Shown: positions 18,329 through 28,413, counted from the stretch's first letter. The stretch: 64,000 nt of DNA from Nitrospirota bacterium (GCA_004321925.1 SCQH01000017.1:32276-96275); one strand, 5' to 3'. Notes: generated by a model not told the origin, from the letters alone. Numbers and translations: made by a program.

Positions 18329-18504
18329 AGTGATCCTTTTGATATATGGCTGTATGCGGTCTGCCGAGTACCTGAGACTGCCCATTGATATGCCTACATG
18401 ATAACAGATATTCTCCCGAGTCTCAAAAAACTATTCCGGCGCCGGGAGGTCTTCAGTAAATGCGGCGTCCTCTTCCCCTGAGTCCATAACCCGGAATATG
18501 AAAT

Positions 18505-18540
18505 AAAAAAAGGCGGGAGCCTGTAACACAGGCACCCGCC
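18505..18540 (-). terminator. Rho-independent terminator of the 18581..18871 gene
   Basis: Minus strand GGCGGGTGCCTGT-GTT-ACAGGCTCCCGCC (13-bp stem, one mismatch) followed by TTTTTTT. Confidence 0.6.
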
Positions 18541-18580
18541 TCAATAAATCAATGCTCTGTCTCTACCCGGTCTTTTTGTA

Positions 18581-18871
18581 CTAGCTTGCCAAGGCGGAGA
18601 GTATGGTCGCGGAAAGCTTAAATGAGCCTTTTTCCTCTTCCTTGACCATCTTGTAGAAATCACACTCCATGCAGTTGCTGAGCTTGCTGCCAAAGCTTCC
18701 CTGTGTCCTGCCGCCGCATTTTGTGTGGGGGATGGTCCAGCAGGCCCTGCCCCCGTTTATTCCATCATGTATGCCGTGCAGTTTGGTTTCCTTACAGACA
18801 GGACAGGCATCATCCCCCAGCGCAGTTGTACATCTCTCGCAGGATTTCACTTCCCAGCAATTTTTTTTCAA
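18581..18871 (-). CDS. 96-aa nine-cysteine protein with two CW motifs (resembles what I recall as the 'two-CW' domain), copy 1
   Basis: 'MKKNCWEVKSCERC...ACPVCKETKLHGIHDGINGGRACWTIPHTKCGG...CMECDFYKMVKEEEKGS'. It has its own terminator and is divergent from the PhnD-like gene. Confidence 0.75.
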   Translation of the reverse strand: MKKNCWEVKSCERCTTALGDDACPVCKETKLHGIHDGINGGRACWTIPHTKCGGRTQGSFGSKLSNCMECDFYKMVKEEEKGSFKLSATILSALAS

Positions 18872-19077
18872 GACCTGATCTCTCCCATAGCGTATTTGAG
18901 TACCAACGAAAACTTCGTTGCAGATATATGCGCTTTTATTATAAGTGAATCACTTTTCCCGGGGCAAATGAATTAATCTTATTATATCATATATTTTCTT
19001 TATATAATGCTTTCCCCTGGCCTATGAGTTTGTGATGTCTGAATATGCAGGGTCCTGGCTTTAAGCGTCAGACATTT

Positions 19078-19106
19078 TTGACAAGGAGCAGAATCTCTGA
19101 TATGTT
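19078..19106 (+). promoter_or_regulatory. Candidate sigma-70 promoter for the PhnD-like gene
   Basis: TTGACA (19078..19083), a 17-nt spacer, then TATGTT (19101..19106), about 65 nt upstream of the start codon. Confidence 0.3.
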
Positions 19107-19171
19107 GTAACTATACGTATCATGCGGCATCAACAAAATAATCCAAAGTCTGACATATGCAAGGAGGAAGT

Positions 19172-20035
19172 ATGATGGACTCAAGGATACAACAGTTTAC
19201 GGTTGCGATTCTGTTCGTAACCGCGATATTCGGCATAGGACCCGATCTGGCGTCTGCTGAGGTCAGGTTCGGTTTACTGCCCCGTCTGACCGCAGTCGAG
19301 ATGTTTGCAATGTTCAAACCCCTTGAGGAGTATCTCACCAAGGAGGTAGGAGAAAAGGTGAACATCGTAACGGCGAAAGATTTTGCCGCCTATAAAGAGA
19401 TGGTGACATCCGGGCAGGTCGATATCGGATTTGCAAATCCGCTTATCTATGTTGAGCTGAAAAAAAACATGGACCTGCTGCCCCTTGCGTTGGCATCGGA
19501 ATTGAAAGCGGGTACCAAATTCCGCGGGATCATCATTGCGAGGAAGGACAGCCCCATCAACAGCCTGCAGGACCTGAAGGGTAAAAAGCTGATATTTGTT
19601 GATAAGGATTCTGCTGCAGGGTATATCTTTCAGGTCCTCCTGCTCAGCAAAGCCGGAATGGATGTCCATAAAGATTTTGTTACCCTGCCCTTCGCAAAGA
19701 AACATGACAATGTCACTATTGCCGTGGTCAATGGCACAGCCGATGCCGGCGGCATTCGTGAGGATGACCTCGAGAAGATGAAGGGGAAGGTCGATATTTC
19801 GAAAATAAAGATAGTCGGCCATACCGAATATTTCCCTAATTGGCCTGTTTTTGCAACTCCCCGGCTGAACAGGGACACGGCGATGAAGATACAGGCAGCC
19901 CTGCTCAAGCTGAAGCCCAAGGACCCGCAGTCCGAAAAGATCCTGGGGAGCGCCAAGCTTGACGGTTTTACGACGGTAAGAGATAAAGACTATGATGAAC
20001 TGCGGAAGGCTGCAAAACTGGTGGGTGCGTATTAG
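19172..20035 (+). CDS. Periplasmic PhnD-family (phosphonate/oxyanion-type) substrate-binding protein with no adjacent ABC components
   Basis: AGGAGG at 19162..19167 favours the ATG at 19172 or 19175. Signal peptide '...VAILFVTAIFGIGPDLASA'. 'VRFGLLPRLTAVEMFAMFKPLEEYL', 'GQVDIGFANP', 'LKGKKLIFVDKDSAAGY'. Confidence 0.8.
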   Translation: MMDSRIQQFTVAILFVTAIFGIGPDLASAEVRFGLLPRLTAVEMFAMFKPLEEYLTKEVGEKVNIVTAKDFAAYKEMVTSGQVDIGFANPLIYVELKKNMDLLPLALASELKAGTKFRGIIIARKDSPINSLQDLKGKKLIFVDKDSAAGYIFQVLLLSKAGMDVHKDFVTLPFAKKHDNVTIAVVNGTADAGGIREDDLEKMKGKVDISKIKIVGHTEYFPNWPVFATPRLNRDTAMKIQAALLKLKPKDPQSEKILGSAKLDGFTTVRDKDYDELRKAAKLVGAY

Positions 20036-20069
20036 GGCCCGGAAAAGACCACTGCAGGAGTGATGGACC

Positions 20070-20291
20070 TTGAAACGGTTGTCCGAAGATGAGCTGAGAA
20101 AAGCCCCGGACTATGCAGAGCTGAAATGGTATAACGGCATCCCGGTGATCGTCAGCGCGCTAGGGGAGACCTGGAAGAGGGTGGCGGCTACGGAGGAGTA
20201 CTCGCCCTACTTCGTCGTTTCTGATGACGACGACGGGGATGATTTCTACGGCACCTATTCTGACGCTGAATCGATCGAGCCGAGCGAGTGA
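20070..20291 (+). CDS. Small acidic hypothetical protein (73 aa)
   Basis: TTG start 9 nt after GGAG. The C-terminal half is acidic ('VVSDDDDGDDFYGTYSDAESIEPSE'). No motif, so support is weak. Confidence 0.3.
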   Translation: MKRLSEDELRKAPDYAELKWYNGIPVIVSALGETWKRVAATEEYSPYFVVSDDDDGDDFYGTYSDAESIEPSE

Positions 20292-20299
20292 CGCGCTGC

Positions 20300-20587
20300 C
20301 TATTCAGTGTTCTTCGTGATCAGTCGTGTGCCGGCGATATAATAATTGCCGAGATTCCTGATCCATAGGACAACGCCGTGGCTGGACTCGCGGACCTGGT
20401 GTTTGAATTCAAGTACATATCCCGTTTTGAGCGGATACCGAGTGATAAGGCAGAGGCCGTTCCTAGATATGTTGATGGCCTTCCCTGTCAGGTCAAGAAA
20501 CTTCAGTCTCCCGTCTTTCAACACAACCACGGTATAGCTGATAAGGGCATGGAAGGGTTTTCTGTCAGAACTTCTGTCAGAAGCCAC
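20300..20587 (-). CDS. PilZ-domain-like small protein
   Basis: 'DRKPFHALISYTVV...GKAINISRNGLCLITRYPLKTGYVLEF' resembles the R/K...(D/N).S.GG PilZ pattern, although the N-terminal RxxxR motif is not clear. Confidence 0.5.
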   Translation of the reverse strand: MASDRSSDRKPFHALISYTVVVLKDGRLKFLDLTGKAINISRNGLCLITRYPLKTGYVLEFKHQVRESSHGVVLWIRNLGNYYIAGTRLITKNTE

Positions 20588-20858
20588 AGCACCTCCTGCA
20601 TTTTCTGTTTTGCTATCCCTGAAGAAAAATGATCAAGAACAGATCGGCTTAGTATCAGTATAAGCCCGGCTGCCGCCTGAGTCCACTTAAATATAGTTAA
20701 TGAAATCCGGCATGAACAGCCTCTAACCATCGTGCATTATTCATGGCGGTACATCCTGCCGCAACAATGATACCCGCCGTTTTTCCTGCCTGCATTTTTT
20801 GATTGTACCTCATATTTTATAACTGCTATGATAACACCATGTCTCAGGGCTATCTTCC

Positions 20859-23723
20859 ATGAGTTTTAAGAAAAGTCTGGAATTCAAAGTGCTCAGCGTC
20901 GTGGGGACGATACTCGTTGCCGGTGTTATTATCGCCTCTGTCATGTCTGTTTCGATCCAGAAAGAAACCCTCTACCGCGTCACCGAATTCAGCACGGAAA
21001 AGACGGCGGACGTCATCTTTCAGAACATAGAGACGACCATGATCGATGGCAAGGCCGATATCACAAAGAAGATCGTCGATAAGCTCAGCCGGATCAGGGG
21101 CATCGAGGAGATAACCGTTCTCAACGACGAGGGGCGCGAGGCATTTAAGCAGGACGCACCTGCCCGCGAAACCGCTGCCATGGCCGAACTGAAGTCCGGG
21201 AAGGAGCGGCTGGTCACGAGGGAAGGGGTCCGGCTGACCATGTATATGCCTTTGAAGAATACAGAGTCCTGTTTCTCCTGTCATGGGCAGGAAAAAAAGG
21301 TGCTTGGGGCGGTAAAGGTCGCCGTCACCATTGAGAAGGAATACCGGAAGGCGATGTCCCTTATAGCTCTGGTCATTGCCATCACGATCATCGCATCACT
21401 TGGCTTCAGTCTCCTGCTCTGGATCATGCTCAGAAAGATGGTCATCTCCCCGGTCAAATCCATCGCTGCCGCCGCTGCCACCATCGCTGAAGGTGACCTC
21501 TCCTTTAATGTGACAGCTCAGGGAGACGATGAAATAGGAAGGCTCAGCTCAGACCTTAAGGAGTCTTTTTCGGCCCTGGAGACCGTCCTCCAGCGGATCA
21601 AGGAGCTCTCTGCCAGGATCATGACGGTAGTGGAAGAGGTGGAACAGGAGGCGGTCAGGGTCATGAAGGGGGCCGAGGCCGAGGCCGAGGCTACCAGCAA
21701 CATATCGAGTTCCGTTGCTGAGCTCACTGTGACCACGACCGAGATCGCATTCAACACAGACGACCTGGCCGCTTCGGCGGGGAATGCCTCAGCCTCGATT
21801 GACGAGATGGTTTCGAGCATCAGGCATATCAACGAGAGCATTCAGGAACTCGACGGGATCGTGGATTCGACATCCGCTTCCATAGGACAGCTTTCCTCAA
21901 CGATCAAAGAGGTTGCGGACAGTTCGGCAGAACTTTCCGTCGCCTCGGATGAGACCCTTGCCGCGATCAGTGAAATAGCAGCCGCGATAAGGGAGGTCGA
22001 AGCCAGCGCAAAGGATTCCGCGGCCCTGTCTGAACAGGTGGCAAGCGACGCCTCGACCCTGGGCATGGCCTCGATCGCCAAGACCGTTGAAGGAATGAAA
22101 GAGATTGAGTCGTCCGTTCAGAACACGGCCCAGTGCATAAGCGCGCTGGGAAACAGGTCCAAGGAGATCGAGAAGATACTGGGTGTCATCCAATCGGTGA
22201 ACGATGAGACTGGCCTGCTCTCCCTCAATGCCGCAATACTGGCGTCCAAGGCCGGGGAGCACGGCAGGGGGTTCGCTATTGTCGCCTCGGAGATGAAGGA
22301 CCTCTCGCAGAGGACGGAAACTTCCACGGGGGATATAGCGGCCCTTATCCGGGCGGTCCAGAATGAGGTGGTAAACGCTGAACGTGCTATGAACAAAGGC
22401 GTCCGTGCTGTTGAAACGGGCCTTGTGCTGACGCAGGAGGCCTACGAGGCATTGAGCAACGTCCTTGGCAGTTCCCGGAAAGCCTCTGAGATGACCCTCT
22501 CGATAAAACGCTCAACGACGGAGCAGGCGAAGGCCGCCGGACAGGTGATGGAGGCTACTGAGCGCGTGAAGAAGATGATAGAGACCATTGCCGGCGCTAC
22601 CCGGGATCAGGCGAAGGGCATCGAGGTCATCTCTGCGGCGGCTGAGAGGATGAAAAAACTCTCCTTTGAGGTGAGCAAGGCAACAGCAGAGCAGGCGACA
22701 AGCAGCGGGCAGATCGCTGAGGCAACTGAAACCGTCTCGGAGAAGAGCCGCCAGATATCAAGGTCCCTGAGTGAGCAGAAGACGGGCGCCGACAGCATTC
22801 TGACCAGCATCGAGGAGGTCAAGGACATACCCGTCGCAAACAAGAACCTGGCCTCAAGGATAAGCGCCACGATATGGAACCTCCAGAAAGATGCAGTGCT
22901 TCTTAAGGCCGAGTTGGAGCGGTTCAGGTTCTCTGAAAAGGGCAGTCAGTCGCTGCGGCTCGGGGTGGTTCCCCTGCAGGACCCCTCTGTCATGTTCAGG
23001 AAATTCAGCCCTCTGGCCAAATACCTCAGCGGGAAAATAGGGAAAAAGGTGGACCTCAGGGTCGCCATTGATATGGAAAGCGCGGAGAAAGACCTGGGGG
23101 AGAACACGACTCAGTTCTGCGCCATGGGCCCGGCAAACTATGTGAATGCCAACCTGAAATACGGGGTCAGGGTGGTTGCAAGGGCCTTGCGAAAAGGCAA
23201 GCCCTTCCACCGCGCCGCTATCGTTGCAAAGGAAGACTCCGGACTGCAGACCCTCAAGGACCTGAAGGGCAAGACCTTTGCCTTTATGAAGAAGGGTTCC
23301 GCAACCGGGCATATCATGCCGCTGGCTTCGCTCAAAGAGGCAGGGATCGGCATGGGCGACCTCAGCCGCCACGCATTCCTCGGGGCCAATGAGAAGATCA
23401 TCTCAGCGATCCTCTCCGGTCAGTTTGATGCCGGGGCACTGACCGAGGAAGCCGCAGTGGACTGCGCAGGGAAAGGGCTGACGGTCCTCAGGTTCTCTGC
23501 CGAAATACCGGAGTTCAATATCTGCTGCAATTCCTCTCTCGATGCCGGGACCGTTGACGCGATCAGGGACGCCCTGCTGTCCCTCGACCTCAGCAGAAAG
23601 GAAGACTCCGAGGTCCTGCTGTCGCTGGGAAGGGATTGTACCGGGTTTGTCAGGGCCGCTGAAAGTGACTACGTTGACTTCAGGAGGATACTGATGAGCA
23701 TTGATGCGGAGCACGGATCGTAG
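20859..23723 (+). CDS. MCP-like transducer, paralogue of 13495..16428, with a CxxCH motif in the extracytoplasmic sensor segment and a C-terminal PhnD-type domain
   Basis: TM 'VLSVVGTILVAGVIIASVMSV' and 'LIALVIAITIIASLGFSLLLWIML'. 'CFSCH' at 21270..21284. HAMP '...IAEGDLSF'. Hairpin tip '[37 protein letters not shown]'. From 22953, '[25 protein letters not shown]...GPANYVNA...GSATGHIMP...PEFNICCN'. Confidence 0.85.
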   Translation: MSFKKSLEFKVLSVVGTILVAGVIIASVMSVSIQKETLYRVTEFSTEKTADVIFQNIETTMIDGKADITKKIVDKLSRIRGIEEITVLNDEGREAFKQDAPARETAAMAELKSGKERLVTREGVRLTMYMPLKNTESCFSCHGQEKKVLGAVKVAVTIEKEYRKAMSLIALVIAITIIASLGFSLLLWIMLRKMVISPVKSIAAAAATIAEGDLSFNVTAQGDDEIGRLSSDLKESFSALETVLQRIKELSARIMTVVEEVEQEAVRVMKGAEAEAEATSNISSSVAELTVTTTEIAFNTDDLAASAGNASASIDEMVSSIRHINESIQELDGIVDSTSASIGQLSSTIKEVADSSAELSVASDETLAAISEIAAAIREVEASAKDSAALSEQVASDASTLGMASIAKTVEGMKEIESSVQNTAQCISALGNRSKEIEKILGVIQSVNDETGLLSLNAAILASKAGEHGRGFAIVASEMKDLSQRTETSTGDIAALIRAVQNEVVNAERAMNKGVRAVETGLVLTQEAYEALSNVLGSSRKASEMTLSIKRSTTEQAKAAGQVMEATERVKKMIETIAGATRDQAKGIEVISAAAERMKKLSFEVSKATAEQATSSGQIAEATETVSEKSRQISRSLSEQKTGADSILTSIEEVKDIPVANKNLASRISATIWNLQKDAVLLKAELERFRFSEKGSQSLRLGVVPLQDPSVMFRKFSPLAKYLSGKIGKKVDLRVAIDMESAEKDLGENTTQFCAMGPANYVNANLKYGVRVVARALRKGKPFHRAAIVAKEDSGLQTLKDLKGKTFAFMKKGSATGHIMPLASLKEAGIGMGDLSRHAFLGANEKIISAILSGQFDAGALTEEAAVDCAGKGLTVLRFSAEIPEFNICCNSSLDAGTVDAIRDALLSLDLSRKEDSEVLLSLGRDCTGFVRAAESDYVDFRRILMSIDAEHGS

Positions 23724-23743
23724 CTATTGCCGTGCCCCAGGAT

Positions 23744-24538
23744 TCAGCCCCGAGGTCCCCGCGGTTCTCCTGTCAGCTCCTCCACGAACCTTTCCAGGAG
23801 ATAGGCAAGGTATTCTATGTCTATATGATCTTCCGCGCCGCTGTCGAACAATATCCTGCAATCAGGGGCAAATTCATCATCGGCCTGCCAGCATGAAAGA
23901 TAAAGCGGAACGCGGGGAAGAAGGTCAAAACAGGCGGTATAATCAGCCCGGGTCCTGCCTTCAATAGCGGTCCCTCCCATCTCAGCACAGCGCAGCATGA
24001 GCCGTTCAAGGTCGTTCCCGAAGGTCTCCGTGATCTTCTTCTCCGCACTGGCCTGGAAGGCCTTGACGTGGGAGGCGGTGTGCGGGAAATTGCCGAGGCT
24101 GCACCATTCACCCGTTAGCGGCTTTCTCCCCTGCCTGCGGACATAGTCGTAGATAATGATCTTTGTCCATGCATCACGGCAGTATGTATTATCCAGGAAC
24201 AGACCGTCCTTACGCATCTCGTAATGCCGGGTAAGCATTGTCAGTTTTATGACCTCTCTGCCGTCACGGGAGAGGTATTCGCCCCCCACGGCCTCTGCAG
24301 CCCCTCTGAATTCTATCTTTACCGCTTCTCTTTCAAGGTCATTGCTCACCTGCCCGTAACTGCTGAAGGCCGATGCCGTCTGCTGAGATTCGGCTTCTCC
24401 GGAGGTTTCGCTTTCTGCAAAAGGGCAATCTTCCAGACGTGCCAGTGATTTTTTCACCTTCAGGGCAAAGGCCATGCAGGTTGCCTCTCCGCACCTGCCG
24501 CAGTTCGTACCCGGAAGTTTCCTGTATATGGTCAACAT
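23744..24538 (-). CDS. Fe-S protein with a corrinoid-Fe-S-protein-like N-terminal cluster motif, followed by a DUF3786-like region
   Basis: 'LPGTNCGRCGEATCMAFALKVKKSLARLEDCP' gives C-x2-C-x4-C-x16-C, as in the N-terminus of CODH/ACS gamma (CFeSP large subunit). Confidence 0.6.
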   Translation of the reverse strand: MLTIYRKLPGTNCGRCGEATCMAFALKVKKSLARLEDCPFAESETSGEAESQQTASAFSSYGQVSNDLEREAVKIEFRGAAEAVGGEYLSRDGREVIKLTMLTRHYEMRKDGLFLDNTYCRDAWTKIIIYDYVRRQGRKPLTGEWCSLGNFPHTASHVKAFQASAEKKITETFGNDLERLMLRCAEMGGTAIEGRTRADYTACFDLLPRVPLYLSCWQADDEFAPDCRILFDSGAEDHIDIEYLAYLLERFVEELTGEPRGPRG

Positions 24539-24551
24539 CCGAGAACCCGTG

Positions 24552-25694
24552 TCACGAAAACCTGTCCCTGATCAGCGTCATCGGTCTTTCATAAGACTTG
24601 TAAAGAGCTGTTGAACAGAGAATCGAAAGGATCCAGAACAGGAGATAATGGATATGATAAGTGCCCATTACCGGGGGGGTCATCCAGAGAAACATGAGTA
24701 TGGTCGAGTTGTGGAGAAGATAGGCAGAGTACGAGATGATGCTCAGATGGGAGACAGCACTGGCGAGAGGTCCCGGACGTCCTTTTTTTACATTATTAAC
24801 TGCAGGCAGCAGGCAGGCCATCCCGAAGCTATTGAATGAGTAGAGGAAAGTCTTTGTAAAGAAGTCCTTTTTGTCCTCAATGATGTTGCCGACAAGATAG
24901 CCTGAACATAATACTATCAGCACCGTGCCCAAATAAAACAGGGGCCGCCGATATCTCTCTTCAAGGGAGCGATAGTAGTAGTAAACATAGGCGAACAATA
25001 CTCCGTACATAATTGAATCTATTCTGAACATCACGATCCCGCCGAGATTCGAAATCTCAGGCAGGTTGGCCAGACTGGCAGCGACCCTTAAGAATAAGCC
25101 TGCAGCAAGATAAAACAGAATTACCACCAGGAAGGTGACCCGCTTGCTGAGTTGCCTCGGGAGAAGCCAGCTGCATGCAATAATGCTGACCGGGAGCAGA
25201 AGATAAAACCATTCCTCAACCGCCAGTGTCCAGGCCTCATAAAAAAAAGGGGGGTGGTCCATAAAGAGATTCTGGCTGAAGATAAGAAATCTGGAGTAAG
25301 ATTGCGGGATACTCCCGTTCAGGACATAAAGAAGTACAAATTGACTGGCCAGTATCAGATAGTAGTTGGGGAGAGTTCTGAACCATCTCCTGATCCAGAA
25401 GGACTTCGCAGTGGCCAGAGTAAAACCGCTCTTCGAGTCCATTGTCCTTATGATGATCTGGCCGACCAGAAACCCGCTTAATACAAAAAACAATTCTACT
25501 CCGAGAAACCCCAGAAGATGAAAGAGTACCTTCGAGAGTGCCTTCGGCAGAGAAGGGAGCAGCACAAGGCTGTGGGCAAAAAGGACGAGAAAAATGGCCA
25601 GGGCCCTGAGCATGTCAAGCCCGAAGATCCTCTTTGAATAATCGACCTTAATTGAGAAAATATTCTGTATGCTGTTGCCCCTTAACATAACCAC
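24552..25694 (-). CDS. Membrane acyltransferase, family 3 (O-acyltransferase)
   Basis: 'FGLDMLRALAIFLVLFAHS' and about 10 hydrophobic segments throughout. Confidence 0.8.
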   Translation of the reverse strand: MVMLRGNSIQNIFSIKVDYSKRIFGLDMLRALAIFLVLFAHSLVLLPSLPKALSKVLFHLLGFLGVELFFVLSGFLVGQIIIRTMDSKSGFTLATAKSFWIRRWFRTLPNYYLILASQFVLLYVLNGSIPQSYSRFLIFSQNLFMDHPPFFYEAWTLAVEEWFYLLLPVSIIACSWLLPRQLSKRVTFLVVILFYLAAGLFLRVAASLANLPEISNLGGIVMFRIDSIMYGVLFAYVYYYYRSLEERYRRPLFYLGTVLIVLCSGYLVGNIIEDKKDFFTKTFLYSFNSFGMACLLPAVNNVKKGRPGPLASAVSHLSIISYSAYLLHNSTILMFLWMTPPVMGTYHIHYLLFWILSILCSTALYKSYERPMTLIRDRFS

Positions 25695-25728
25695 GGGATA
25701 GATTCCGAATTTATAATAAAATAGCCTG

Positions 25729-26361
25729 CTATCTCAACCCCGGCAGGAGCACGGTCAGTCCGCCGGTGATGAACTCGACGGCAATGGCTGCCAGCAGCAG
25801 GCCCATCAGGCGGGTTGCGATATTGATCGACGTTTTGCTCATGACGCTTCTCAGAGGACTGGCGATGCTGAGGGAGACCCAGGTCAGTGCAGCCACCAGG
25901 GCGCTGCTGATAATGAGCAGGGTAAGATGCAGAACATGGGGCGACGCGTCCGCATATATGATTATGGTCGATATGGCACCCGGTCCTGCCAGCAGCGGCA
26001 TGGCGATCGGGACCACGGCGATACTTCCCTTCTCTTCTGCCTCAGCCTCCTCTTCGGGGGTCTGCTTTGTCTGCGCGTATTTTGCCTGCATCATCGAGAT
26101 CGCCATGAGCAGAAGCAGAATGCCCCCTCCTACCTTGAATGAGGCGATACTGATACCGAAAAAATCAAGCAGCGGCTTGCCGAGCAGCGCGGCCACGGTC
26201 AGGATCACGACGACAGTCATGCTTGCGGTGTTGATGACGCGTTTGCGGTCCCCTGACGCCATAGAGCCTGTCATGCTGATAAAGATCGGGATCGCCCCGA
26301 GAGGGTTCACGATCGCAAGAAGCGTGGTGAATATTTTGACGTAGGCTGTCCATTCAAGCAT
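25729..26361 (-). CDS. MarC-family (UPF0056) integral membrane protein
   Basis: 'FTTLLAIVNPLGAIPIFISMT' and 'IAVVPIAMPLLAGPGAISTIII' are typical of the MarC family. Confidence 0.85.
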   Translation of the reverse strand: MLEWTAYVKIFTTLLAIVNPLGAIPIFISMTGSMASGDRKRVINTASMTVVVILTVAALLGKPLLDFFGISIASFKVGGGILLLLMAISMMQAKYAQTKQTPEEEAEAEEKGSIAVVPIAMPLLAGPGAISTIIIYADASPHVLHLTLLIISSALVAALTWVSLSIASPLRSVMSKTSINIATRLMGLLLAAIAVEFITGGLTVLLPGLR

Positions 26362-26583
26362 GGCTATGCCTTGGTGTCAGTCTGATAATTGTTGCCTGAC
26401 TGAAGAGATATGACCTGCATGTTTTATACTCACATATGTGCTGCGGAATTACAAGAGCAGGTTGATCGTGCCGGCTTCAGACCGAAAGAAGGACCAAGAG
26501 AGGCCCTATCTCATCCAAGACGAGAAGTGCTGAAATAACAATTGTAAAAGGTGTAGTCCTGACCTTTGGTCTTTGTCGAGCGG

Positions 26584-27492
26584 TTATTTTTTCTTAAGAT
26601 TGTAGGTTTTCAGGTTAATGCCGGCTTTTTTTGCCAACTCAAAGACATTTTTATAGTCTTCATGCACGTCTGCAGCAGCATATCCTGTTATATCCAGGTT
26701 CTTCAGAATGGCCCTGCCTTCGGTGTCCCCATGCATTTCAAGCAGGGTCTTCCTGACAGCGCTCCGGATATCAGGGGGTACGGACTTTCCCAGAAACAGG
26801 CCGTGAGAAGGGAATTCCGGAGATTCATCAATAATTTTCAGTTCTTTCTCGATACGCGGATTGGCAGCTTGCAATGAAGAATAAACCGTGCTCTTTGCCA
26901 CCCCGACATCGACCCGCCCGTTAAGCACTGCAATAATTGCAGCATCATGGCTGCCGGCAAAATAGTGCTCGCTGAAAAATGTGGAGATATTGGTTATTCC
27001 ATGACGTCCGAGATAGGCCAGCGGGTAAATATATCCGCAGGAAGACCCTTTATCAATGAAAACCATGGACTTTCCCTTCATGTCGGCCGCATTATTGATC
27101 CTGCTGTCCTTTCTCACAAAGATATGCCCGTGATAGGTAGTCTTCCCCCCGATGGAAATAGACCGCACCAGTGCTTCGGCGCCAAGCCTTTCATGGGCAA
27201 CGGCACCTGACAGGGATCCAAAAAAGGCACCGTCGATGCCTCCTGACAGCATAGTGTTTATAACACTGCCGTAATCGCTCAGGACCAATATGCTGACCTT
27301 TATGCCGGTCTTGCTGTTTATATAGTGAGCCAATGCATTATATTTCTGATTTTGCCTGAAGATATTTTGCTCGGGGATAATACCGATCCGAAGCTCGGAG
27401 GCCTTAATCTCAGGATATGAAAAAGCAGGATTGCAAAGACTTGAAGCTATGAATAGAACAGCAATTATGAACGTGCGCCGGAGCAATGACAT
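26584..27492 (-). CDS. Periplasmic PhnD-family substrate-binding protein, second orphan copy
   Basis: Signal peptide 'MSLLRRTFIIAVLFIASSLCNPAFS'. 'LRIGIIPEQNIFRQNQKYNALAHYI', 'GGIDGAFFGS', 'MKGKSMVFIDKGSSCGYIYP'. No permease or ATPase gene is nearby. Confidence 0.8.
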   Translation of the reverse strand: MSLLRRTFIIAVLFIASSLCNPAFSYPEIKASELRIGIIPEQNIFRQNQKYNALAHYINSKTGIKVSILVLSDYGSVINTMLSGGIDGAFFGSLSGAVAHERLGAEALVRSISIGGKTTYHGHIFVRKDSRINNAADMKGKSMVFIDKGSSCGYIYPLAYLGRHGITNISTFFSEHYFAGSHDAAIIAVLNGRVDVGVAKSTVYSSLQAANPRIEKELKIIDESPEFPSHGLFLGKSVPPDIRSAVRKTLLEMHGDTEGRAILKNLDITGYAAADVHEDYKNVFELAKKAGINLKTYNLKKK

Positions 27493-27814
27493 TTATTATC
27501 CTTAACTGATACGCGGATTGTGCAGAGCAACATTTACGTCTTCTTCATGGTGTGCTCTTCGGTTTGTCAAGTGTATTTATTATATGCAGCTCTATATAAA
27601 TTATAATACACGGAAGCCGAGGATTTGTACAGACGTATGTTTTGGCGGGAAGCGATTTTTAAAAAAAAGAATTGCTGTGGCGAAATTGAAGCATCCATGG
27701 ATCATCTCCCCGTAAAGGGGGGGGCAAAGTTAAGCTGGGCTCCGGCCCGGCAGGACAAGCACTGGGCCGGAGGATTCCTTGAGGAATCCTGTCCCGGCGA
27801 CCTGGGTCACAAGG

Positions 27815-28105
27815 CTAGGTTCTCAGCTTAGACAGTATGGTGGCTGAAAGCTGATACGAACCTTTTTCCTCTTCTTTTACCAGCTTATAAAAATCGCACT
27901 CCATACAGATACGGAGCTCCTTGGCGAAATCTCCGTGACCGCTGCCCCCGCATTTTGTGTGGGGAACGGTCCAGCAGGCCCTGCCCCCGTTGATGCCGTC
28001 ATGCGTCCCGTGTAATTTCGTCTCTTTGCAGACAGGACAGGCGTTGCTCCCGGAGACCGATCCGCATCTCCCGCAGGATTTTACTTCCCAGCAATTTGCT
28101 TTCAT
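27815..28105 (-). CDS. 96-aa nine-cysteine two-CW-motif protein, copy 2
   Basis: The start is at the ATG at 28103..28105, behind GGGGGGA plus 7 nt. 'MKANCWEVKSCGRC...ACPVCKETKLHGTHDGINGGRACWTVPHTKCGG...CMECDFYKLVKEEEKGS'. It aligns without gaps to 18581..18871. Confidence 0.75.
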   Translation of the reverse strand: MKANCWEVKSCGRCGSVSGSNACPVCKETKLHGTHDGINGGRACWTVPHTKCGGSGHGDFAKELRICMECDFYKLVKEEEKGSYQLSATILSKLRT

Positions 28106-28291
28106 GGTTCGATCCCCCCGGAAAGAAGTTACTGACTCTGAATCCATAATAATCAGTATATCTACTAATTATAATTTTAGGAAAATGAATTATTTTTATT
28201 GATCCATTAGTGCATTTTATGTTTTTCCTCTGTTTCGAGGGGGTGACATGAGCGAAGTCGAAAGGCTGCTTAAAGCACCAACTGCTGGTCG

Positions 28292-28328
28292 ACAAAAGGC
28301 GGAAGACTTTATTTACAAGTCTTCCGCC
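28292..28328 (-). terminator. Hairpin terminator immediately 3' of the tRNA (could act in both directions)
   Basis: GGCGGAAGACTT-TATTTAC-AAGTCTTCCGCC, a 12-bp perfect stem. It is followed by TTTTGT on the minus strand and TTTGTATTTT on the plus strand. Confidence 0.5.
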
Positions 28329-28337
28329 TTTGTATTT

Positions 28338-28413
28338 TGGTGGCGGTGCAGGGAGTTGAACCCCGGACACTGCGAATATGAGTCGCATGCTCTACCAACT
28401 GAGCTACACCGCC
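28338..28413 (-). tRNA. tRNA with anticodon CAT (Met, or Ile2 if lysidine-modified), CCA encoded
   Basis: The reverse complement folds as GGCGGTG-TA-GCTC-AGTTGGTA-GAGC-A-TGCGA-CTCATAT-TCGCA-GTGTC-CGGGG-TTCAACT-CCCTG-CACCGCC-ACCA. All four stems are complementary (one G-T pair). Confidence 0.9.

Follow-up and report, generated by a model that had tools for sequence, protein, structure and literature searches.

Two-CW proteins of a Nitrospirota bacterium belong to a cysteine-rich domain family coupled to signalling proteins

A rubredoxin-like Fe(Cys)4 domain forms part of classical rubrerythrins, the Desulfovibrio chemoreceptor DcrH carries a hemerythrin domain, and the CZB domain is a 3His/1Cys four-helix bundle. 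In TlpD and DgcZ, CZB constitutes a small cytoplasmic metal-Cys module for the sensing of oxidants or redox state, located C-terminally on chemoreceptors and diguanylate cyclases (PMC6715182, PMC8262984). Among the solute-binding proteins (SBPs), AioX is listed as a signalling member (PMC8050422). In this work, we analyzed a window of 64,000 nucleotides from a Nitrospirota bacterium (GCA_004321925.1, SCQH01000017.1:32276-96275; coordinates are counted from its first letter) in which two genes, here termed CW1 and CW2, encode small Cys-rich proteins of the two-CW family (NCBIfam NF045718), each next to a gene for a PhnD-type binding protein. An earlier reading of this DNA, made from the sequence alone (the sequence-only reading), had proposed that a two-CW gene and a PhnD-type gene form a functional unit, present here in two copies, in which the two-CW product might act, for example, as the metal- or redox-active cytoplasmic partner of a binding-protein-based sensor.

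The two-CW domain resembles CZB in its placement, being found in NIT-MCP-CW, GGDEF-CW and CW-PAS-GGDEF proteins (MCP, methyl-accepting chemotaxis protein), but this likeness is one of functional analogy only. No sequence or fold relation links the two domains, two-CW has no match to the CZB profile (Pfam, E <= 0.01), and it combines seven Cys with a loop-rich N-terminal half, a small hairpin and then three C-terminal helices in an AlphaFold2 (AF2) model. A second parallel is with two accessory metal domains found in anaerobes, the Fe(Cys)4 domain of rubrerythrins and the hemerythrin of DcrH, which sit C-terminally on a di-iron protein or an MCP. The two-CW domain occupies the same position in the family representatives P0161 (C-terminal on a rubrerythrin domain), P0189 and P0138 (MCP plus two-CW), although no homology to either domain was detected. 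A test for rubredoxins and ferredoxins revealed no Pfam, PDB sequence or fold match and neither a CxxC...CxxC nor a CxxCxxCxxxCP pattern. The eukaryotic zf-CW zinc finger (PF07496) has nothing in common with two-CW except its name and that it contains Cys and Trp; there is no Pfam match, length and Cys pattern differ, and the two are unrelated. For the neighbouring genes, PhnD1 and PhnD2, the comparison is with AioX (together with AioS), because they too encode PF12974 proteins without transporter partners and PhnD1 orthologues precede MCP genes, and with the PhnD-like sensor domain of TtrS, which gave a partial NCBIfam match. The AioX/TtrS comparison concerns the PhnD genes, which are not partners of the two-CW genes by any conserved criterion.

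The two-CW family and its coupling to signalling proteins

The two genes are located in the window as follows:

18581..18871, minus strand: CW1, two-CW paralogue 1; 96 aa, TTG start, nine Cys; NF045718 match
27815..28105, minus strand: CW2, two-CW paralogue 2; 96 aa, ATG start; NF045718 match

Translation of the open reading frames (ORFs) agreed with the sequence-only reading in the coordinates, strand and length of both products, and the likeness that it had described was reproduced as well. CW1 and CW2 align without gaps (BLASTP 71/94 identities, 0 gaps, E = 3e-55), a recount gave the same 71 identical positions out of 96, and both proteins contain nine Cys (positions 5, 11, 14, 23, 26, 44, 52, 67 and 70) and both C-W dipeptides (C5-W6 and C44-W45). 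CW1 starts with the TTG at 18871, with GGGAGAG 8 nt upstream, and CW2 with the ATG at 28105, preceded by a GGGGGG ribosome-binding site (RBS) at 28119..28114. A longer CW2 ORF that reaches 28147 was rejected; it is without the family N-terminus MKxNCWE. The genes are 74.7% identical in nucleotides, with a synonymous divergence (dS) of ~1.3 and a dN/dS ratio of 0.14. As judged from these sequence comparisons the duplication is old, and the dN/dS ratio indicates purifying selection on both copies. Their DNA likeness ends at the borders of the coding sequences, except for a short motif in the promoter region common to both. Each protein, of ~10.4 kDa, corresponds to one two-CW domain and is mildly basic (isoelectric point, pI, 8.4-8.6; family median 8.8). 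A hydrophobic-segment scan revealed neither a signal peptide nor a transmembrane segment in CW1 or CW2, and in the lack of a signal peptide the two-CW proteins are therefore cytoplasmic.

The family assignment that the sequence-only reading had offered was borne out. Both proteins exceeded the curated cutoff (35 bits) of the 80-position NF045718 'two_CW_domain' model over its full extent, CW1 with 81.3 bits (model positions 1-80) and CW2 with 78.9 bits (2-80), and a Pfam scan of the two proteins gave no match at E <= 0.01. Searching 1.84 billion representatives with a profile (E <= 1e-3) yielded 1585 family clusters at 50% identity, and 4037 clusters were found in a 90%-identity database at E <= 1e-5. 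The matches are centred on Nitrospirota/Thermodesulfovibrionia and extend to Desulfobulbales, Omnitrophota, Ignavibacteriota, Oscillospiraceae, Methanospirillum and Methanoregula; the hosts comprise bacteria and archaea, mostly anaerobes, and several genomes contain three to five or more two-CW loci. No paper on two-CW or NF045718 was found in the literature searched. The family is named but otherwise uncharacterised, and CW1 and CW2 are new members of it.

In an alignment of 402 domains, conservation reaches 97% or more at C5, C11, C23, C44, C52, C67 and C70, and W6, W45, G37, G41 and R42 are essentially invariant, the core being GxNGGRACW. Conservation of all nine Cys, as previously noted, therefore holds between the two copies, but only seven are conserved family-wide. 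The residues C14, C26 and H49 are specific to a subclade of 47 of the 402 sampled domains, including the window proteins, in which they occur together and the loop 14-23 is shortened by 3 residues; they may form an extra metal site. The Cys spacing of this subclade is C-x5-C-x11-C-x20-C-x7-C-x14-C-x2-C, and that of most of the family begins C-x5-C-x14-C. Conservation is spread over the full length, with no division into leader and core. The AF2 model described above was obtained with a 150-sequence alignment (pLDDT 86.7, pTM 0.79); the model with a 34-sequence alignment was unusable (pLDDT 56). A Foldseek comparison of the former with PDB and BFVD gave best E values of 4.2-4.7 and TM-scores of at most 0.25, a sequence-profile search of PDB returned chance matches only (E >= 0.18), and no solved two-CW structure was found in these sequence-profile and fold searches.

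To place the family in its genomic context, a census was made of 80 two-CW loci, the best of 418 confirmed two-CW matches in species-representative genomes. The immediate neighbours of these loci (n = 124) included Response_reg (18), PAS_9 (11), HATPase_c (9), HisKA (8), GerE (6), HAMP (5), HD-GYP (4) and GAF (4) domains. In an equal-sized control set of genes at least 5 positions away in the same loci (n = 124), Response_reg occurred twice and the other signalling families just listed were not among its top 25. Because single-linkage clustering of the neighbouring ORFs merged all signalling proteins, Pfam censuses and a custom hidden Markov model (HMM) of the receiver domain (REC) were used instead. 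With the latter, REC genes made up 15.3, 10.5, 8.0, 4.5, 4.0 and 1.9% of the genes at successive ranks away from the two-CW gene (the last value for rank 6 or more), and the comparison of rank 1 with rank 4 or more gave an odds ratio of 6.8 (Fisher p = 1e-7). Clustering of the 19 rank-1 REC genes at 50% identity gave 13 groups, and therefore the enrichment does not derive from one expanded operon, although the loci are not wholly independent of one another. Many of the signalling neighbours are on the same strand as the two-CW gene at distances of <150 bp. Genes for selenocysteine machinery (SelB, 3; SelA, 2) and Prismane/hybrid-cluster proteins (2) were also observed among the 124 neighbours.

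The coupling is physical as well as genomic. Among the best 150 family representatives, 46 are at least 185 aa long (~30% fusions), and these contain HATPase_c (12), REC (11), HisKA (8), PAS (7), Pkinase (3), cNMP_binding (3), PilZ (3), GGDEF (2) and MCPsignal (2) domains; GAF, guanylate cyclase, STAS and PP2C domains occur in long representatives too. Besides the three architectures mentioned above, REC-CW, CW-cNMP-Pkinase, GAF-PAS-HK-REC-Hpt-CW and PAS-HK-CW (HK, histidine kinase), together with rubrerythrin-CW and CW-DsrC, were verified, the last one at L098:47-670 (PF04358, 88.7 bits). Taken together, these results indicate that two-CW is a conserved, independently folding, cytoplasmic Cys-rich module that is coupled both genomically and physically to signalling proteins.

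The domain also recurs next to itself. Two or three two-CW genes lie side by side in 14 of the 80 loci; 13 of these are tandems (e.g. L062:9565-10378, L046:4647-5716, L012, L015, L025 and L037), and one further locus holds a convergent pair. Single proteins of 184-277 aa with two two-CW domains are common (P0116, P0117, P0119, P0266-P0287). Tandems and double-domain proteins suggest that the domain may act as a dimer or as a pair.

Candidate function of the two-CW domain

The most likely role of two-CW, and one that we consider probable, is that of a sensory or modulator module with a metal cofactor, although both the cofactor and the signal are inferred. The seven conserved Cys, the two invariant Trp and the GxNGGRACW core suggest one metal centre or two with Cys ligands, of Fe-S or Zn type. 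That such a centre may be redox-active is suggested by the position of two-CW in a rubrerythrin, where the rubredoxin-like domain would lie, by the DsrC fusion and by the anaerobic hosts. In the manner of CZB and of the DcrH hemerythrin, two-CW might signal the redox, oxidant or metal state to the transmitter to which it is fused or next to which it is encoded. Fused copies would act in cis and free-standing ones, such as CW1 and CW2, in trans, with a receiver domain or a chemoreceptor as the partner. The earlier proposal that the protein is a cytoplasmic partner of sensors is supported, though indirectly, by the signalling neighbours, the fusions and the seven conserved Cys, and its metal or redox activity stays a prediction. 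A more detailed reading can be put forward only tentatively: a Cys7 domain of new fold, binding Fe-S or Zn, would sense redox for two-component, chemotaxis, cyclic di-GMP and Ser/Thr-kinase signalling in anaerobes, and the targets of the window copies, modulated in trans, would be chemoreceptors or receivers, which might include the unusual MCPs with a cytoplasmic PhnD-type domain that are encoded nearby.

Several observations weigh against the sensory or modulator role. The 80 census loci are mostly from Nitrospirota and are not phylogenetically independent, and their ORFs were called mechanically. The metal cofactor and its ligands are presumed from the Cys pattern and the genomic context. 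In this genome no two-component gene is an immediate neighbour of CW1 or CW2. Finally, REC-CW and PilZ-CW proteins have two-CW at the usual position of an output domain, so that an effector or adaptor would fit equally. According to this last view, two-CW would be an output, adaptor or DNA-binding zinc module that takes its signal from REC or PilZ and acts on DNA or another protein as target, the free copies being small regulators; its C-terminal location in REC-CW (P0129, P0142) and PilZ-containing fusions, the GerE/LuxR and sigma-70 region 4 genes among the neighbours, and the mildly basic character of the proteins are in agreement with it. However, the N-terminal placement in CW-PAS-GGDEF, CW-cNMP-kinase and CW-HK proteins is typical of input domains, DNA binding is hard to reconcile with a C-terminal position on MCPs and rubrerythrin and with the DsrC fusion, and neither the sequence-profile search of PDB nor Foldseek revealed likeness to a known DNA-binding fold, which makes an output role rather unlikely.

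The absence of a two-component gene beside either copy in the window would also suit a small electron-transfer protein, similar to rubredoxin or ferredoxin, that serves redox enzymes and has no signalling role in its free form. Small size, Cys richness, mostly anaerobic hosts, the rubrerythrin-CW and CW-DsrC fusions, and the Prismane/hybrid-cluster, radical-SAM and Fe-S genes among the neighbours all point in that direction, but signalling domains dominate both fusions and neighbourhoods, no Fe-S or rubredoxin Pfam match was obtained, and the Cys spacing is unlike that of ferredoxin motifs; an electron carrier therefore appears unlikely to us. The size and Cys content of the products, and a radical SAM gene in 3 of the 124 immediate neighbours (e.g. 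in L064), might also recall precursors of ribosomally synthesized and post-translationally modified peptides, or secreted peptides. Such a role was rejected as having next to no likelihood, since the domain is embedded in large cytoplasmic signalling proteins, its model is confidently globular (pLDDT 87), conservation is uniform without a leader/core split, no signal peptide is present and radical SAM genes are so few. A metal-cofactor sensory or modulator module is hence retained as the preferred function.

Transcription, synteny and PhnD-type neighbours of CW1 and CW2

The following transcription signals were located around the two genes:

18967..18938, minus strand: promoter-like TTGCCC-18-TATAAT of CW1 (promoter scan)
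18880..18967, minus strand: CW1 upstream region with the promoter-like site, a 5' untranslated region (5'UTR) with a 7-bp hairpin, and the RBS GGGAGAG (18886..18880)
18503..18542, minus strand: CW1 intrinsic terminator, a GC-rich hairpin followed by U7
28338..28413, minus strand: tRNA-Met (CAT), directly upstream of CW2 (ARAGORN; Rfam tRNA 68.6 bits)

The strong terminator of its own that had been ascribed to CW1 was found again: the hairpin folds with -29.3 kcal/mol (z = -3.5), and none of 200 shuffled sequences was as stable. On the other side, the CW1 upstream region is near-identical up to ~19008 (window coordinate) in L081, a syntenic locus described below. The hairpin in its 5'UTR (~18907..18925, minus strand; CAACGAA-GTTT-TCGTTG) is perfect over 7 bp and identical in L081, and it has no match to an Rfam family; an Rfam scan of 13-30 kb returned the tRNA as the sole match. 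CW2 is separated from tRNA-Met by a terminator-like hairpin (28295..28331; terminator scan), and with the tRNA gene and this terminator upstream it must therefore have its own promoter. In the 322 bp between CW2 and PhnD2 the scan revealed no canonical terminator, and co-transcription of these two genes is therefore possible. CW1 and CW2 are genuine paralogues that, in the explanation that we favour, are probably transcribed separately and behave as monocistronic orphans in this genome.

The other genes that bear on the relation of CW1 and CW2 to their surroundings are:

19172..20035, plus strand: PhnD1, PF12974 Phosphonate-bd (222.9 bits); divergent from CW1
26584..27492, minus strand: PhnD2, PF12974 (210.9 bits); same strand as CW2 and 322 bp downstream of it
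24552..25694, minus strand: Acyltransferase_3 gene (Pfam); third strain-specific single-gene indel
20859..23723, plus strand: MCP-PhnD_B, with Mcp40H-20_sensor, HAMP, MCPsignal and Phosphonate-bd domains; 93% identical in L081
13495..16428, plus strand: MCP-PhnD_A, an MCP with a C-terminal PhnD-type domain (Pfam, transmembrane scan)
20300..20587, minus strand: orf95, weakly PilZ-like (E = 0.004, 17.8 bits, under the cutoff of 22.5)
20070..20291, plus strand: orf73, an acidic 73-aa ORF adjoining orf95; no family match

PhnD1 and PhnD2 have the positions and orientations relative to CW1 and CW2 that the sequence-only reading gave. Its term 'PhnD-type' stands at the level of the PF12974 domain but not at that of PhnD itself, for which the two proteins score 157.7 and 183.4 bits against an equivalog cutoff (TIGR03431) of 261.1. 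No ABC ATPase or permease gene was present among the genes scanned (10-36.7 kb). Both proteins have an N-terminal signal peptide (hydrophobic segment) and are therefore periplasmic. They are 26% identical to each other, versus 74% for CW1 and CW2, and have closer homologues elsewhere (57-76% for PhnD1, 50-67% for PhnD2), which contradicts a duplication of the gene pair as a unit.

Decisive information came from the Thermodesulfovibrionales metagenome-assembled genome GCA_054640675.1 (L081) and from L082, likewise close and syntenic, which were reached through the family representative P0042; the seven closest two-CW loci of species-representative genomes (L001-L007) show no synteny with the window and no PhnD gene. 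The window is 97% (IDH), 99% (MreB), 96% (RodA) and 93% (MCP-PhnD_B) identical to L081/L082, where the gene order is IMPase-GlgP-RDD-MreBCD-PBP2-RodA-CW2-MarC-DUF3786-MCP_PhnD_B-orf95-orf73-CW1-HD-IDH-MCP_PhnD_A. Both two-CW genes are thus in the same slots in L081 and L082, and both stand-alone PhnD genes are absent. By BLASTN, the window differs from L081 by three clean single-gene indels, at 19009..20070 (PhnD1), 26462..27813 (PhnD2) and 24539..25729 (acyltransferase). The GC content at third codon positions of these three genes (0.60, 0.52 and 0.59, respectively), lower than that of the core neighbours (0.70-0.79), hints that they were gained in the lineage of the window. Compared with its L081 orthologue CW1 is 99% identical and CW2 ~83%, an asymmetric divergence of the paralogues between strains.

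The model of a two-gene unit, in which the two-CW protein is the cytoplasmic partner of a binding-protein sensor, has some observations in its favour. A PhnD gene is the immediate neighbour of both copies, for which random placement among ~61 genes gives p ~0.002 as a rough estimate. In the census that the sequence-only reading had called for, a PhnD HMM gave strong matches in two of the 80 loci, L062 and L017, and a weak one in L064, and both strong matches directly adjoin the two-CW gene (353 bp in L062 and 421 bp in L017; ~1.2 Mb of flanks). Among 26 metagenome loci with PhnD1 orthologues (L084-L109), two contain a two-CW gene: in L104 (847-3887) PhnD, MCP and two-CW genes follow each other as an operon with a 20-nt gap, and in L098 the CW-DsrC gene lies 3.3 kb from a PhnD-MCP pair. 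Nevertheless, the retention of both two-CW genes without either PhnD gene in L081 and L082, with otherwise identical synteny, largely refutes such a unit. In addition to the unequal divergence of the PhnD and two-CW pairs, the two pairs differ in orientation, CW1 has its own terminator, PhnD adjacency amounts to just 2-3 of the 80 two-CW loci, none of the three PhnD2 homologue loci examined has a two-CW neighbour, and the SBPs are periplasmic while the two-CW proteins are cytoplasmic. We therefore regard a CW/PhnD unit as very unlikely.

In L062 and L017 PhnD precedes a histidine kinase and stands at the head of its system, and in at least 10 of the 26 PhnD1-orthologue loci an MCP gene lies directly downstream of PhnD (e.g. 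L084:3920-6377 and L096:4010-6671), which suggests that the usual partner of a PhnD1-type binding protein is a chemoreceptor encoded in an SBP-MCP operon, in agreement with signalling SBPs such as AioX (PMC8050422). Because the events are so few, no specific pairing of two-CW with PhnD can be derived from them, and the residual link would at best reflect, weakly, the same broad class of signalling neighbourhood. The PhnD genes are themselves signalling accessories, and therefore the best explanation, which we hold to be the probable one, is that the window is a cluster of sensing genes with no CW/PhnD unit; the adjacency seen here would then in all likelihood be the product of the strain-specific single-gene indels.

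The surroundings of CW1 that are common to both strains comprise both MCP-PhnD genes and the weakly PilZ-like orf95. The latter has RxxxR and NxSxxG motifs, is 86% identical in L081, where it lies two genes from CW1, and is kept there with orf73 between MCP-PhnD_B and CW1. Between MCP-PhnD_A and MCP-PhnD_B the PhnD domains share 58% identity, and their identity to the stand-alone PhnD proteins is ~27%. In both receptors the PF12974 domain follows the cytoplasmic MCP signalling domain; there are only two transmembrane segments, both N-terminal, and the PhnD-type domain therefore appears to be cytoplasmic. Directly downstream of MCP-PhnD_B, in convergent orientation, is a DUF3786 gene (23744..24538, minus strand) that is kept in L081; its product has a PF04060 'putative Fe-S cluster' motif at the N-terminus.

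Significance of the two-CW family

The interest of these findings lies in the two-CW family rather than in this locus, whose genes are ordinary catalogued members. With more than 1500 clusters at 50% identity and seven invariant Cys, the family is large, and no Pfam model, structure or literature was found for it. According to the census, two-CW is part of the signal-transduction equipment of anaerobes. Identification of its cofactor and its signal would establish two-CW as a new input domain of the kind represented by CZB or hemerythrin, and would help to annotate kinases, receivers, cyclases and chemoreceptors, thousands in all, of Nitrospirota, Desulfobacterota, methanogens and other organisms.

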